Sequence record: MH791409.1
Source: Escherichia phage EcWhh-1
Reading direction: 5' to 3' (one strand)
DNA: 64,000 nt
Position 1 is the stretch's first letter. Each line of letters opens with the position of its first letter. A program made the translations under genes and the position numbers. Shown piece after piece: positions 5,699 to 52,662 of the stretch. Under the pieces are notes generated by a model. The model did no database searches and had not been told where the DNA came from. It saw only the letters and a program-made list of their open reading frames with translations.

Positions 5699-6373
5699 TT
5701 ATCGATTTTTTACACTTAATGGGTCTGGATTCTCAGGAACATCTTCCAGGTTTAAAGCATATCGTTGGGCATATTTCAGCATCAAGATATCCTTAGCACA
5801 GTCATGGATAGAGTCATGGGCTACAAAGCCATTCAATGTTCCGTTAGGCAGAGGGCACATGCTTAATCCACGCGTCAGTGAATAGGCTTCAATGGCCGTG
5901 CGGATATCACGTTGGTTCCAGAATTTAACCGGTTCCAACTTAGTGGTATCGATTTCGTTCTCAGGAACACCTTCAGAACGATAAGCATCGCGAATAAGGT
6001 CCACTAAGATTGGAAAGTCAAAGGACATTCCGCGGCACCACATCTGCGATTTCCATTGGTCCACTTCGTTTTTACGGCAGTATTCCAGGAAATTACCAAT
6101 GCCGATAGAAGTACTCACATCAATTTCGGACGGAGCCAGGTTTTTACGTGCTTCGGGTCCTTGTTCTTTCCACCACTGCAATGTGCTTTTAGAGAACAGA
6201 CGTTTATCGCGTTGAGAAGCCAAATCGAATTTAATACGAAGGCCACGTTGAGTAAGCTCTTCAAACGATTCTACTACCTCTGGATTAGGGTCATAAGCAA
6301 TTACGGCGAGGTCGATAACTGCTGCATTTTGGGTAGTGGCAAAGGTTTCGAAGTCAATAATTATATCTTTCAT
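5699..6373 (-). CDS. dexA: exonuclease A (DEDDh 3'-5' exonuclease)
   Basis: 224 aa. Exo I IIDFET, Exo III HDSIHDCAKD. Lies immediately downstream of dda as in T4. Confidence 0.8.
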   Translation of the reverse strand: MKDIIIDFETFATTQNAAVIDLAVIAYDPNPEVVESFEELTQRGLRIKFDLASQRDKRLFSKSTLQWWKEQGPEARKNLAPSEIDVSTSIGIGNFLEYCRKNEVDQWKSQMWCRGMSFDFPILVDLIRDAYRSEGVPENEIDTTKLEPVKFWNQRDIRTAIEAYSLTRGLSMCPLPNGTLNGFVAHDSIHDCAKDILMLKYAQRYALNLEDVPENPDPLSVKNR

Positions 6374-47335: not shown

Positions 47336-48346
47336 TCATTTATAATACGAGTTATGGTTTTCTAGGTAAACCTGCTCAACGAACTTGTCCCAGAACTTCA
47401 TATCTACCTTATCAGGCATACCGTTCTTAGCTGCCCAGATGGCATTGGTTTCGACTTCATCAACTATAGCTTCGAGCTCAGCCTGTACATCTTTAAAAGC
47501 ATGTAGCCCCTGTTTGATTTCAAGGATAAATGGTGCTGTTCGTAAAGGATATTGAAGGTCACCGGTCATATAGATTTCCTTCAACTGATATCCAGCACGA
47601 TAAGCATGGCTCAGAGCTTTCCAGTCAATACCTTCATTAGCTTCAGCCTTACGAGCACGTTCGCCATATTCTGCATCAAGTTTATTCAGAGATTGCTTAA
47701 GCTCGACCAATGACAGAGTAGTTTGGTACTTACGTCCGAGGACAGTATAGAACGTTTGAGGACCTGTTTTCTCGTGGTTATGAAATACCCATTCACAGAA
47801 CTCGTTTTCAGGGAGCCGGTGCTTAATATCTTCTACCTTAGTACGTCGTTGCTTAGTAGAACCATCTTCTTGATAATCAACCCACTGTTCAGGAATCTGG
47901 TTAACGATAGCCAGTACACCACGCAGAGCAGCCAGACGAGAACCCTTAACACCATATTTAGAAGCTTGCTTACGAACGTACCCTAAATAGGCTTTCATGT
48001 TGGTTGTATAGAACCGAGAACGATTGTCTTGGATAAATTTCCATACATCAGGTAAATCAGATTTAACCACCAGTTCAGGTGGAGTATGAATCATGTCCAG
48101 AGCAACTGTTTCGCCATCAGCCGCTAGTTTAAAGAAATATTTCAGGCTGTAAAGCTCGTGGTCGACATCATCTTTAGTGTTTTTGGAAGCAGTGTTATTC
48201 GTGTTCAGGTTGGTATGGTTCATAGCCGTACCTAACAGAATATCACGCGGATGCGGAACAAAGATTTCTTTAAAATCGACATCAGATTCCGGAGTACTTG
48301 TTCCATAAAGGTGGCTACCGAAGTAGCCTTTCATAACTGTTCTCAT
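47336..48346 (-). CDS. predicted nucleotidyltransferase (pol-beta superfamily, RlaP-like)
   Basis: 336 aa. GSHLYGTSTPESDVDF (G-S...D-x-D) signature. ATGA overlap with the upstream gene. Confidence 0.6.
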   Translation of the reverse strand: MRTVMKGYFGSHLYGTSTPESDVDFKEIFVPHPRDILLGTAMNHTNLNTNNTASKNTKDDVDHELYSLKYFFKLAADGETVALDMIHTPPELVVKSDLPDVWKFIQDNRSRFYTTNMKAYLGYVRKQASKYGVKGSRLAALRGVLAIVNQIPEQWVDYQEDGSTKQRRTKVEDIKHRLPENEFCEWVFHNHEKTGPQTFYTVLGRKYQTTLSLVELKQSLNKLDAEYGERARKAEANEGIDWKALSHAYRAGYQLKEIYMTGDLQYPLRTAPFILEIKQGLHAFKDVQAELEAIVDEVETNAIWAAKNGMPDKVDMKFWDKFVEQVYLENHNSYYK

Positions 48347-48795
48347 TCTTTATTCTCGAAGTGGATTACAGGGCAGACCTTAGATTTACGAGCTTTGATA
48401 TATTGGATGACAACGTTTTCTTTAGTTTCTCGGCCTTCACGCTCAGCTTGAATACGTTGCCATTCCTTTTCTTCTCTACGGGCATCATACCATGAGTGTA
48501 AATTCATCGCACCGAATGCCAAACCAATGGATAGCGCAATAATAAGAGATATTGCAACCAACCCTAAAACAAACCCGAGACTCAACAGAACAGGGGTACT
48601 TAATACAAAGAAATGCTCTAATACACCAGCACCTGCAACAGTTAATCCAAAAAGCGTACTACCTGCAACAACAGCACAAGCAAAACAAGCCCAAACCATT
48701 TTCCAGAAGTAAGCACACAAAGAGTGTGGTCGAGAATGGCGGTCATAAAAACGGTCGTGTAATTTAACGTGCCAAGAGTTTGTATTGATAATCAT
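48343..48795 (-). CDS. membrane protein, 150 aa
   Basis: Three hydrophobic segments (CAYFWKMVWACFACAVVAGSTLFGL...). Confidence 0.55.
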   Translation of the reverse strand: MIINTNSWHVKLHDRFYDRHSRPHSLCAYFWKMVWACFACAVVAGSTLFGLTVAGAGVLEHFFVLSTPVLLSLGFVLGLVAISLIIALSIGLAFGAMNLHSWYDARREEKEWQRIQAEREGRETKENVVIQYIKARKSKVCPVIHFENKE

Positions 48796-48804
48796 AATAT
48801 TTCC

Positions 48805-49365
48805 TTAAGAGTTCATAGTTGGGATAACAGAGTTCAGATAAGAGACTAAAGCTTTGAGCTCGTCCTTAGTAAATACCACTTCATTTTCACCGTCGTGTCT
48901 TTGGGTCAAGGATAGCAAATCACGACCCTGATGTTGATACACAGACAATTCGGTGTCATAATCCATTTCTTCTTCATCACCTTCAAAGGTTTCACTAGAA
49001 CGAATTACCGCATCTTGGCCAGGGACTTTCCATTCAACTTCTGGATGGCATTCTTCCTGGAACAGTTTAAAAATATATTTAAAGAAATTAGCAGAATCAC
49101 TAATGCTTAGACATTCCCCATCCGTTTCCAAATTAAACCCGTTGTCATGGTTATAAATCTGGGCCCACATATCATCGTTAATATTAAATACACCTCTAAA
49201 ACTACCATTAAGATATTGGTGTTTGTCCAAAACCTTTAAATCGTAAAGTGGTTTGATATCTTGGATAGTCAGTACGATTTTATCGTCTTCTTGTGAAAGC
49301 ACAATTGCATTATCAACTACTTCAGCGGTCAGGTCACCAAACAACCCAGATGTTTCAATAATCAT
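48805..49365 (-). CDS. hypothetical acidic protein, 186 aa
   Basis: C-terminal block VFTKDELKALVSYLNS, shared with 49562-49759 and 50066-50302. Confidence 0.55.
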   Translation of the reverse strand: MIIETSGLFGDLTAEVVDNAIVLSQEDDKIVLTIQDIKPLYDLKVLDKHQYLNGSFRGVFNINDDMWAQIYNHDNGFNLETDGECLSISDSANFFKYIFKLFQEECHPEVEWKVPGQDAVIRSSETFEGDEEEMDYDTELSVYQHQGRDLLSLTQRHDGENEVVFTKDELKALVSYLNSVIPTMNS

Positions 49366-49375
49366 TTTCCGTTCC

Positions 49376-49558
49376 TCATTTCACATTTTGTTTAATAAAA
49401 TTTAACAACTCTTTAAGAGCTTCATCTTCTTCTTTAGAAAGCCTGCTACATTCACTAGCTGGGTAATCATTGCAAAACGCAGTTTCAAATCTGGCCACTG
49501 CTCCAGCATATGACTCGATAAGCTCTTCAAGTTTTAAATGCTTTTCTTCGGTTTTCAT
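49376..49558 (-). CDS. hypothetical helical protein, 60 aa (paralogue of 49879-50061)
   Basis: FCNDYPASECSRL...ALKELLNFIKQ versus MCEGYSYSGIERCKRD...ALVDYLEELK. Confidence 0.5.
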   Translation of the reverse strand: MKTEEKHLKLEELIESYAGAVARFETAFCNDYPASECSRLSKEEDEALKELLNFIKQNVK

Positions 49559-49561
49559 AAA

Positions 49562-49759
49562 TCACCGGTTGTGTTTTAAAATACTATAAAGCTCTTCGAC
49601 CTGGCTTGCGTTCAGACAAATCATATCATTTTCTTGTTGGAGCGTAATTCCACCTTTTTCTTCCCAATCTTTAACAAAGATGTCATCGTCAGACTCTTCA
49701 ACATCGGCCAAAAGGACGATAATACCGTCTTCAGAATTACCACTCGGATCGTATAACAT
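49562..49759 (-). CDS. hypothetical acidic protein, 65 aa
   Basis: Start moved to ATG 49759 (GAGGAAA SD, TAATG coupling). MLYDPSGNSEDGIIVLLADVEESDDD... Confidence 0.5.
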   Translation of the reverse strand: MLYDPSGNSEDGIIVLLADVEESDDDIFVKDWEEKGGITLQQENDMICLNASQVEELYSILKHNR

Positions 49760-49854
49760 TACAGTTTCCTCGCTAACCATGAAAAGAATAAACCAATTAA
49801 AACAGGCCCTACAGCCATTGTTAGCCAAGCCCAAGGTTCAAGATAGTAAATCAT
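49759..49854 (-). CDS. possible membrane peptide, 31 aa
   Basis: MIYYLEPWAWLTMAVGPVLIGLFFSWLARKL. TAATG-coupled to the next gene. Very short, so tentative. Confidence 0.3.
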   Translation of the reverse strand: MIYYLEPWAWLTMAVGPVLIGLFFSWLARKL

Positions 49855-49878
49855 CTCATGCTCCTGTGCCATCAGCCA

Positions 49879-50061
49879 TTATGCTTTCAATTCTTCTAAA
49901 TAATCAACCAAAGCCTGTTTTGATTTAGCCAAATCTCGTTTACACCGTTCTATTCCAGAATATGAATAACCTTCACACATCTCAACCGCAAGGTCGTTAG
50001 AATCTCTTTCAATTTCAATAGCCAATTTAAGAATTTTTGCACACTGTTCAGTAGTTAACAT
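49879..50061 (-). CDS. hypothetical helical protein, 60 aa
   Basis: Paralogue of 49376-49558 (C-x2-Y-x4-6-C motif). Confidence 0.5.
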   Translation of the reverse strand: MLTTEQCAKILKLAIEIERDSNDLAVEMCEGYSYSGIERCKRDLAKSKQALVDYLEELKA

Positions 50062-50065
50062 AATA

Positions 50066-50302
50066 TCACCAGTATTTGTTGATAGTAGAAATTAATTCTT
50101 GGGCTTGGGCTGTATTCAGTTTACACCCACAACCCTTTAATGTGTCTTTAAGGAGCCACGGTTCCTTGAGCTCGTCCTTTTCCAGACGAATTCTGTATCC
50201 TCGATAATCGGCAAAGATACTTCGGTCGTCGAATATCTTAATCTCAAGGATACGACCATTGATTTCATATTCTAATGAAACCGTAGTACTTGTAAGTTTC
50301 AT
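50066..50302 (-). CDS. hypothetical protein, 78 aa
   Basis: C-terminal CKLNTAQAQELISTINKYW block shared with downstream paralogues. Confidence 0.5.
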   Translation of the reverse strand: MKLTSTTVSLEYEINGRILEIKIFDDRSIFADYRGYRIRLEKDELKEPWLLKDTLKGCGCKLNTAQAQELISTINKYW

Positions 50303-50315
50303 ACTGTTTTCCTCA

Positions 50316-50546
50316 TTAAATTTTTTCGAATAATGCTAAAGCTTTTTCGATAGCTACAGATTTAGTACCAATAACCATTTTAGGCTGGTATTGGAACTTA
50401 GTAGCTTCGTAAACTTCTAAACCGGTTACTTTACCATTTTGTTCGATAATAGCAAAGGTGGCGTTTTCAAAATCTTCAGCTTTAACTTTAAGTGCTTTAG
50501 AAGCTTTAGCGATATCGATAACTTTCAGGTTGGTGATGGTTTTCAT
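50316..50546 (-). CDS. hypothetical protein, 76 aa
   Basis: GAGGAG SD. First gene after an early promoter. Confidence 0.55.
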   Translation of the reverse strand: MKTITNLKVIDIAKASKALKVKAEDFENATFAIIEQNGKVTGLEVYEATKFQYQPKMVIGTKSVAIEKALALFEKI

Positions 50547-50574
50547 TTTGTTCTCCTCATTAGTTGGTAGGTCT

Positions 50575-50603
50575 ATAGTATCATGTTCCTAGAGGATGTA
50601 AAC
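50575..50603 (-). promoter_or_regulatory. early-type promoter
   Basis: GTTTAC (50603-50598), 17 nt, TACTAT (50580-50575). Confidence 0.6.
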
Positions 50604-50612
50604 ACCTAAACG

Positions 50613-50640
50613 AAAAAAGGTCCCACCGAAGTGAGACCTT
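50613..50640 (-). terminator. rho-independent terminator
   Basis: AAGGUCUCAC-UUCG-GUGGGACCUU (one mismatch) plus a U6 run. Confidence 0.65.
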
Positions 50641-50643
50641 TGA

Positions 50644-52267: not shown

Positions 52268-52453
52268 TTAAAGACTATTTACATAAGCTATTAATTCATT
52301 TTCTTTCTCATCAAATCGATTGGCAAATTCTTCCTGGTGTTCGGCATCTATAGGGCCATATTCATCATAAAAAGAATTTGCTTCTGCATGCTCATCCAAA
52401 AGCTCATGGATAAGCTCAAATAATTTATCTTTCTGTTCTTTACTCAGACTCAT
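52268..52453 (-). CDS. hypothetical acidic protein, 61 aa
   Basis: Start moved to ATG 52453 (AAAGGTG SD, ATGA coupling). Confidence 0.5.
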   Translation of the reverse strand: MSLSKEQKDKLFELIHELLDEHAEANSFYDEYGPIDAEHQEEFANRFDEKENELIAYVNSL

Positions 52454-52662
52454 AACCATTGCACCTTTAAGCAATATTCTTCTACATGATGTTTACGTTT
52501 ATTTTTATCTATAAAAGTATATTCAACGTATTCACCGATATACCATTTATCGGTGTTGTGTTGACTTTTTATAGGGCATTTAGTTACTCGGGTTTCAGTC
52601 CAACGTCGAATAATTTCCGCTTTGTTTTTAGGGTCAAACGGATGTGGGTAATGGGCTTTCAT
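52450..52662 (-). CDS. hypothetical protein, 70 aa
   Basis: Coding-strand ORF that overlaps the macro-domain gene end. Confidence 0.5.
   Translation of the reverse strand: MKAHYPHPFDPKNKAEIIRRWTETRVTKCPIKSQHNTDKWYIGEYVEYTFIDKNKRKHHVEEYCLKVQWL

Follow-up and report, generated by a model that had tools for sequence, protein, structure and literature searches.

Which arrangement gave rise to the alternation of small genes of two kinds in the mobD region of a T4-like phage, a local duplication or the chance assortment of unrelated families? In the 64,000-nucleotide (nt) stretch of Escherichia phage EcWhh-1 analysed here (record MH791409.1; the whole stretch is referred to as the window), positions 48,805 to 50,302 code for proteins of 78, 60, 65, 60 and 186 amino acids (aa) in transcription order. 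A sequence-only reading had described this block as a locally duplicated and diverging pair, built from a beta-rich protein and a 60-aa helical protein. We refer to the 78-aa protein as A1, the first 60-aa protein as B1, the 65-aa protein as A2 and the second 60-aa protein as B2. A 31-aa hydrophobic open reading frame (ORF) is called pep31, and the 186-aa gene is annotated as mobD.1 in the phages IME08 and JS10, the T4 MobD.1 protein being y05I. All of these ORFs exist as described, including pep31 and a downstream gene for a 150-aa membrane protein. We think it fairly likely that the five genes derive from two old, expanded small-protein families, which alternate here by chance, and that the members of one family form PC4-like pairs while no gene forms an obligate pair with its neighbour. 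Family B is DUF7438, and family A consists of predicted beta-beta-beta-beta-alpha units, with three of them in the single chain of MobD.1.

The Pfam family DUF7438 (PF24219; 57 profile positions, gathering cutoff 25 bits) matches B1 with 57.7 bits (E 1.5e-15, residues 2-58 on profile positions 1-57). B2 falls below the cutoff with 19.9 bits (E 1e-3), and its match covers the full length (residues 3-56 on positions 2-55). In a pairwise BLASTP comparison, B1 and B2 are not significantly similar (E 0.83). All ORFs from 40 T4-like loci around nrdC.11 and from T4, RB69 and one Klebsiella phage were searched iteratively, which yielded 68 distinct DUF7438-type sequences. In a single-linkage phmmer network, the sub-families correspond to T4 Tk.1, Tk.2, MobD.3, MobD.4 and MobD.2a; B1 groups with T4 MobD.3 (E <1e-10) and B2 is closest to the MobD.2a clade (E ~1e-5 with RB69-type MobD.2a). 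The MobD.2a proteins nearest to B2 match Pfam DUF7438 at E ~4e-16, and E values of 1e-13 to 1e-18 were obtained for B1, the Tk.2 protein of the window, T4 Tk.1, Tk.2, MobD.3 and MobD.4, and RB69 MobD.2a. Initial hhalign scores for B1 with B2, and for A2 with unit III of MobD.1, were inflated by shared sequences, and both comparisons were repeated with disjoint sets. B2 and MobD.2a (8 sequences) then aligned end to end with all other DUF7438-type proteins (58 sequences) over 59 columns (Prob 96.9%, E 1.7e-10, 17% identity), and narrow profiles made from the orthologues of B1 and B2 only gave E 0.0057. The earlier claim that the 60-aa proteins are related is thereby borne out: judged by these profiles, B1 and B2 are homologous, as old and distant paralogues of about 17% identity. 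The profiles also make B2 assignable to DUF7438, which is new here.

Since B1 is nearest to T4 MobD.3 and B2 to MobD.2a, the duplication predates the divergence of the T4-like genera. Each protein is nearer to genes of other phages than to the other, and we reject the interpretation as a local duplicated pair, a conclusion that is new here. In the window, the family is represented at least three times, one copy being a Tk.2 orthologue next to tk (Table 1) that had been overlooked; T4 has five copies (Tk.1, Tk.2, MobD.4, MobD.3 and a frameshifted MobD.2a). A C-x2-Y...C motif had been taken as the mark of the 60-aa proteins; it is not a feature of DUF7438, as T4 MobD.3 lacks the second cysteine and the MobD.2a proteins lack the cysteine motif altogether. 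Proteins of this family are acidic and have a length of about 60 aa, and their conserved N- and C-terminal segments enclose a variable middle, an alignment pattern which suggests a two-helix hairpin. Searches of PDB sequences with the DUF7438 profile or with MobD.1 gave nothing below E 0.2. A separate observation concerns T4 mobD.2a (annotated as 38 aa; NC_000866, minus strand, positions 5994-6166 of the fetched locus L009), which corresponds to the first half of a DUF7438 gene that a 1-nt deletion has disrupted. A close Tequatrovirus relative has an intact MobD.2a of 57 aa (L018 4668-4841), and an unannotated 33-aa ORF downstream of T4 mobD.2a matches the back half of this intact version.

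The pairing of a beta-rich with a 60-aa protein is likewise not kept across relatives, neither in gene co-occurrence nor in adjacency. Among 12 distinct close genomes with A1, B2 is present in five and missing from seven, all of which keep A2. Compared with JS10, the B2 gene is a gene-exact indel of 186 nt (window 49376-49561 versus L002 and L005), spanning from just past the stop codon of A2 up to and including that of B2, with TGA at both junctions. In the phage collection, A2 was found in 255 records, A1 in 75 and B2 in 24, the latter in about a third of the records carrying A1. T4 has its DUF7438 genes in arrays without a beta-rich partner, and the order in RB69-like phages is B-A2-(MobD.2)-B-MobD.1. 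JS10-type relatives carry an extra gene for an 85-aa DksA/TraR-type zinc-finger protein between the B1 orthologue and pep31 (L002 4367-4624; Pfam E 1.6e-9), which is absent from the window. Genes of the block are gained and lost as gene-exact cassettes. Copy-number variation in relatives, which had been proposed as a check, was indeed found for DUF7438, with B2 gained or lost alone, but it does not involve a two-gene unit. Strict alternation of three A-type and two B-type genes is one of ten possible orders. As all junctions in the block are tight, with at most 4 nt of overlap and gaps of no more than 24 nt, the spacing of 3-4 nt from A-type to B-type genes is not special. The suggestion of toxin-antidote behaviour also finds no support: Pfam, PHROGs and PADLOC gave no match to a toxin, antitoxin or defence family for the block proteins, and the best toxin-antitoxin match, to Unstab_antitox, was insignificant (E 0.016) and concerned the Tk.2-like copy only. 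We infer that none of these genes is in an obligate pair with its neighbour.

The second family is more diverse. A2 matches the Pfam family DUF7189 (PF23819, cutoff 27 bits) with 102.9 bits (E 1e-29, residues 1-65 on profile positions 1-68). The sequence-only reading had connected A1, A2 and MobD.1 through a shared terminal block. A2 and MobD.1 are related as it supposed, but through a different segment, and A1 could not be linked to them. Among the five proteins, A2 and MobD.1 residues 20-43 form the only significant pair in BLASTP (E 0.001), Pfam DUF7189 reaches MobD.1 at E 0.011, and hhalign with disjoint sets aligns A2 with MobD.1 residues 19-43 over 25 columns, including the hairpin (Prob 90%, E 1.5e-6). 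The C-terminal block of MobD.1 aligned with A2 at E 5e-4 after removal of shared sequences. The unrelated DUF7438 profile scores alike on the same helix (E 6e-4), and the C-terminal block by itself is therefore at the background level of amphipathic helices. A regular expression for the terminal block matched solely its three source proteins; a looser pattern was weakly enriched (3 observed, 0.6 expected), which, being post hoc, we do not take as evidence. The proposed profile-profile alignment thus gave significant results for B1 with B2 and for A2 with MobD.1, but left A1 without a link. By these alignments, A2 corresponds to one unit and is homologous to MobD.1 repeat I, and the link between DUF7189 and unit I is new here. 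An ORF of about 71 aa (L043 5741-5956) is matched by both the DUF7189 and MobD.1 hidden Markov models (HMMs), which hints at a link with the C-terminal domain of MobD.1 too. One phage record labels an A2 homologue as 'DUF2283'; this was not reproduced in our Pfam scan.

MobD.1, which is found in 743 phage records, matches T4_y05I_N (PF24449, 142.5 bits) and T4_y05I_C (PF24448, 76.8 bits) in this order, both above the cutoff. An AlphaFold2 (AF2) model from 49 sequences (predicted local distance difference test score, pLDDT, 69.7; predicted template modelling score, pTM, 0.56) shows three beta4-alpha units at residues 1-45, 57-105 and 110-183. Repeat I has strands at residues 2-4, 12-17, 20-25 and 28-32 and a helix at 34-44. 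In repeat II, the strands are at 59-63, 66-73, 76-80 and 85-88 and the helix at 91-105, and in repeat III at 110-114, 118-121, 138-145 and 148-157, followed by a helix at 167-183 with the conserved motif K-x-E-A-x-A-L-x-x-Y-L-N-S-V-I-P-T-M. T4_y05I_C also exists as a gene of its own (about 65-85 aa) in T4-like phages that are more distant, where it shares the position of MobD.1 upstream of the membrane-protein gene. The three-unit, Pur-alpha-like architecture that the model suggests for MobD.1 is new here.

Several variants of this architecture were seen among relatives. Some Tequatrovirus phages have two tandem MobD.1 paralogues of about 180 and 173 aa (L018 5461-6531, L020 5452-6537, L045 5452-6537), the second of which has three separate matches to the DUF7189 HMM. 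The 120-aa protein P0039 joins a DUF7189-like N-terminus to y05I_C, and phage vB_EcoM_005 has a truncated MobD.1 of 153 aa (L008 5001-5462); these two cases point to events of recombination or deletion between units. A 58-aa ORF without a Pfam match, from a Pectobacterium phage PM2-like locus (L041 5057-5233), ends in a beta strand followed by FSKEDAVLIAKEILK and may be a further beta-rich unit of the A type.

A1 is a narrow, lineage-restricted orphan. A word-indexed search of 5.8e9 proteins found 13 clusters with at least 78% identity, and an exhaustive HMM search of 1.84e9 representatives added one further homologue, P0071, with 42% identity. The P0071 gene (L052 4001-4243) belongs to an RB69-like phage and is flanked by nrdC.10 and a DUF7203 gene, with no adjoining DUF7438 gene, and the A1 family has therefore moved between sites. 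A1 and A2 gave no BLASTP alignment and an hhalign Prob of 5%, the comparisons of A1 with MobD.1 were non-significant with both programs, Pfam DUF7189 did not match A1, and no bridge to DUF7189 or y05I was found in the word-indexed and exhaustive HMM searches. The AF2 model of A1 (pLDDT 83) has four beta strands, a helix and an extra C-terminal helix, and it resembles 77-86-aa proteins of T4-like phages in a viral structure library at template modelling (TM) scores of 0.7-0.8. Its predicted fold is the same kind of unit as in the A family plus one helix, but a link in sequence could not be shown. If A1 is such a unit, topology and a non-significant hhalign alignment suggest that the helix equivalent to that of the repeats is at residues 41-56 ('EKDELKE...') and is not the terminal helix chosen by the sequence-only reading. 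Apart from this, the hairpin at A1 residues 26-45, SIFADYRGYRIRLEKDELKE, matches a repeated hairpin of P0072 at a whole-library E of 3e-5. P0072 is a 285-aa bacterial protein with four YHS domains, and the matched hairpins include cysteine-free copies such as SIFADHNGYRVYFDSKES. This likeness over 20 residues could reflect convergence or a remote link to YHS/TRASH hairpins.

What could such units do? PC4-like domains consist of beta-beta-beta-beta-alpha units, which are paired either within one chain or between two, and of the three repeats of Pur-alpha, the first two make up an intramolecular domain and the third mediates dimerisation between molecules (PMC7549692). The models of MobD.1 and A1, which are predictions only, consist of such units, and their fold class is PC4-like (PUR/Whirly). 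In a structure search, they superpose on solved members of this class: Pur-alpha (PDB 3k44, 5fgp/5fgo), PBF-2 p24, StWhy2, MRP1/2, SsgB and Borrelia Bpur, the same PDB families being recovered for both proteins, and the MobD.1 model aligns with Pur-alpha repeats I-II over 103 residues. We propose that MobD.1 repeats I and II may pack into one PC4-like domain, as in Pur-alpha, and that repeat III and the single-unit proteins would each complete the fold with a unit of another chain, in homodimers or heterodimers. The 103-residue alignment further suggests that helices may be swapped between paired units. MobD.1 has an isoelectric point (pI) of 4.2 and a net charge of -24, and A2 a pI of 4.05 and a net charge of -12; this bulk charge speaks against the binding of single-stranded nucleic acid through a basic or aromatic sheet surface. 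SsgB has a PC4-like fold and binds protein rather than nucleic acid. As the A-type proteins are strongly acidic, it seems likelier, with low certainty, that they are protein binders like SsgB, or mimics of nucleic acid, than that they bind DNA or RNA directly. The DUF7438 proteins would work apart from the A-type proteins and would probably be small binding partners of host or phage factors, and no gene of the block would form an obligate pair with its neighbour.

Several points weigh against this interpretation. The confidence of the MobD.1 model is moderate. For repeat II, no similarity in sequence to repeat I or repeat III could be detected, and it is therefore called a repeat on predicted structure only. 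The four-strand topology of A2, beta-beta-beta-beta-alpha, is read from its sequence. Finally, A1 lies beside B1 in each of the 12 distinct close genomes, and the two may be functionally linked within this narrow clade.

Among the alternatives, the strongest holds that MobD.1 and the single-unit proteins are true binders of single-stranded DNA or RNA, or transcription factors, maybe acting with NrdC.11. We regard this as unlikely. The fold class is dominated by binders of single-stranded nucleic acid (Pur-alpha, Whirly, MRP1/2), Pfam names the family 'y05I-like putative transcription factor', and a y05I_C-type gene, the membrane-protein gene and the RlaP nucleotidyltransferase gene occur in a conserved order; the negative charge of MobD.1 and A2 speaks against it, as do the presence of SsgB among the structural matches and the finding that PurA and Whirly Pfam families match none of the block proteins at E up to 1. 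It is more doubtful still that the resemblance among the A-type proteins is convergent, a hairpin and an N-capped amphipathic helix being a common motif, and that A1, and maybe repeats II and III, are unrelated to DUF7189. The non-significant A1 comparisons, the equal performance of the DUF7438 profile on the C-terminal helix of MobD.1 and the missing sequence signal of repeat II would fit such convergence, but the match of A2 to repeat I is robust over 25 columns including the hairpin, the L043 ORF is matched by both HMMs, and the models of A1 and MobD.1 retrieve the same structural families. We see a slim chance that acidic single PUR-like units (DUF7189, stand-alone y05I_C and A1) pair combinatorially with each other, or with MobD.1 repeat III, into various PC4-like domains, and that the complexes work together with the membrane protein or disable host factors by mimicking nucleic acid; in that case, MobD.1 would join Pur-alpha as the second protein known to combine an intramolecular with an intermolecular PC4-like domain. 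That a beta-rich and a 60-aa helical gene were duplicated locally as a module whose diverging partners interact, for example as toxin and antidote, is very improbable: the order A1-B1-(pep31)-A2-B2-MobD.1, the short A-to-B gaps, the homology of B1 and B2 and the constant neighbourhood of A1 and B1 agree with it, but T4 or RB69 holds a closer relative of each of B1 and B2, B2 is far rarer than A2 and drops out as an exact cassette with A2 left in place, gene order differs in T4 and RB69, the distant A1 homologue has no B neighbour, A1 and A2 are not significantly similar, all gaps in the block are equally tight and no toxin-antitoxin or defence family was matched.

The features of the region are collected in Table 1. 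The source phage is a T4-like phage of the genus Dhakavirus; positions 48300-50600 are 98% identical to Escherichia phage IME08 and match 132 phage records. The block is the mobD region, a variable stretch of small genes between rI.-1 and nrdC.11. The annotated order in IME08 and JS10 is tk, rI, rI.-1, mobD.3, mobD.1, membrane protein and nrdC.11 in the direction of transcription, and the equivalent stretch of T4 contains mobD.5, mobD.4, mobD.3, mobD.2a, mobD.2, mobD.1, the mobD homing endonuclease gene and nrdC.11. The T4 segment from nrdC.11 to mobD.3 can be deleted (PMC9825161). In this Dhakavirus, the region belongs to the accessory block of early genes that extends from rI.-1 to nrdC.11.

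Table 1. Features of the mobD region of the window, in the direction of transcription
Feature	Position	Strand	Basis or remark
Third DUF7438 paralogue, Tk.2 orthologue, near tk	52268..52474	-	Pfam E 2.3e-18, 66.7 bits; local HMM E 5e-24
Probable transcription-unit start	50575..50641	-	Terminator-like hairpin 50641-50616, then early-promoter-like site; consensus scan and sequence reading
76-aa ORF upstream of block, phrog_18567	50316..50546	-	
A1, 78 aa	50302..50066	-	phrog_10363, no Pfam
B1, 60 aa	50061..49879	-	DUF7438, T4 MobD.3 orthologue
pep31, 31-aa hydrophobic ORF	49854..49759	-	phrog_12165 (E 3e-25)
A2, 65 aa	49759..49562	-	DUF7189
B2, 60 aa	49558..49376	-	phrog_2758, divergent DUF7438
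MobD.1, 186 aa	49365..48805	-	T4_y05I_N and T4_y05I_C
MobD.1 repeat I, residues 1-50 (predicted)	49216..49365	-	AF2; A2 match; Pfam T4_y05I_N
MobD.1 repeat II, residues 55-108 (predicted)	49042..49203	-	AF2 only
MobD.1 repeat III, T4_y05I_C, residues 109-186 and stop codon (predicted)	48805..49041	-	Pfam PF24448 E 1.6e-21; AF2
Membrane protein, 150 aa	48795..48343	-	phrog_944
NrdC.11, RlaP-type nucleotidyltransferase; last gene of probable unit	47336..48346	-	Pfam PF10127, E 5.5e-10
Terminator-like hairpin after nrdC.11	47334-47315		

Terminator-like hairpins at both ends and an early-promoter-like site (50602-50575; GTTTACA, 16 nt, TG-n-TACTAT) suggest that one early transcription unit may span the whole block. 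The variable sites of A1 and A2 fall mostly on third codon positions (12/9/41 for A1 and 5/4/24 for A2 at first, second and third positions), and both are therefore real genes. The stop codon of pep31 overlaps the ATG of A2 (TAATG), and pep31 is present in 11 of the 12 distinct close genomes; a third-position bias is absent from the few available sequences, so that pep31 is a candidate gene. The RefSeq annotation of IME08 (NC_014260) has no coding sequence for A1 (L001 5768-6004) or B2 (L001 5078-5260), the tblastn rows for these reading 'none', so that two real genes are absent from the closest RefSeq annotation. The same annotation gives A2 as a 90-aa protein with a TTG start that overlaps the pep31 ORF, which is probably too long. 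The 76-aa ORF upstream of A1 was seen among the fetched loci only in the window and in IME08 and is another variable cassette.

Next to these variable genes stands a conserved module, consisting of a y05I_C- or DUF7189-type gene, the phrog_944 membrane-protein gene and nrdC.11. In 42 of 45 occurrences (loci L001-L046), a y05I_C- or DUF7189-type gene lies immediately upstream of the phrog_944 gene, with a gap of -11 to +28 nt. The phrog_944 gene is followed by nrdC.11, the start of which it overlaps. In T4, the membrane-protein gene is absent and its site is taken by the mobD homing endonuclease gene.

A literature search found no functional study of mobD.1-mobD.5, tk.1 and tk.2, DUF7438 or DUF7189. 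All families except that of A1 were known as Pfam or PHROG entries, and the functions discussed here are inferred, which keeps the impact modest. The block exemplifies how, in variable regions of T4-like genomes, small accessory genes turn over cassette by cassette. The predicted three-unit MobD.1 alongside free single units amounts to a testable hypothesis on the structure of a widespread and uncharacterised T4 protein, and the strong negative charge of MobD.1 calls its label as a putative transcription factor into question.

Taken together, the block can be compared with four known systems. With type II toxin-antitoxin systems it shares two small, adjoining genes with very short spacing, but co-occurrence is not conserved, no such family is matched, one partner is lost alone in many relatives, and the genes lie in a long polycistronic early unit rather than a self-contained operon. 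With DUF7438, B1 and B2 have in common a length of about 60 aa, an N-terminal M-x-T-x-E-Q...L-I and a C-terminal L-x-x-Y-L-E-x-L, and differ in a Cys-x2-Tyr...Cys motif that both carry and that is not conserved family-wide. A2 is a full-length member of DUF7189, and the 186-aa protein holds both y05I domains; these three families are separate models in the Pfam scan and were linked here by profile comparison. The phage proteins differ from Pur-alpha and other PC4-like proteins in their strongly acidic character and in the extra C-terminal helix of A1, and no relationship was detected at the level of sequence. Their likeness lies in the predicted architecture, in which two units would be able to form an intramolecular domain, a third would need a partner, and single-unit proteins would have to dimerise, as Bpur does.

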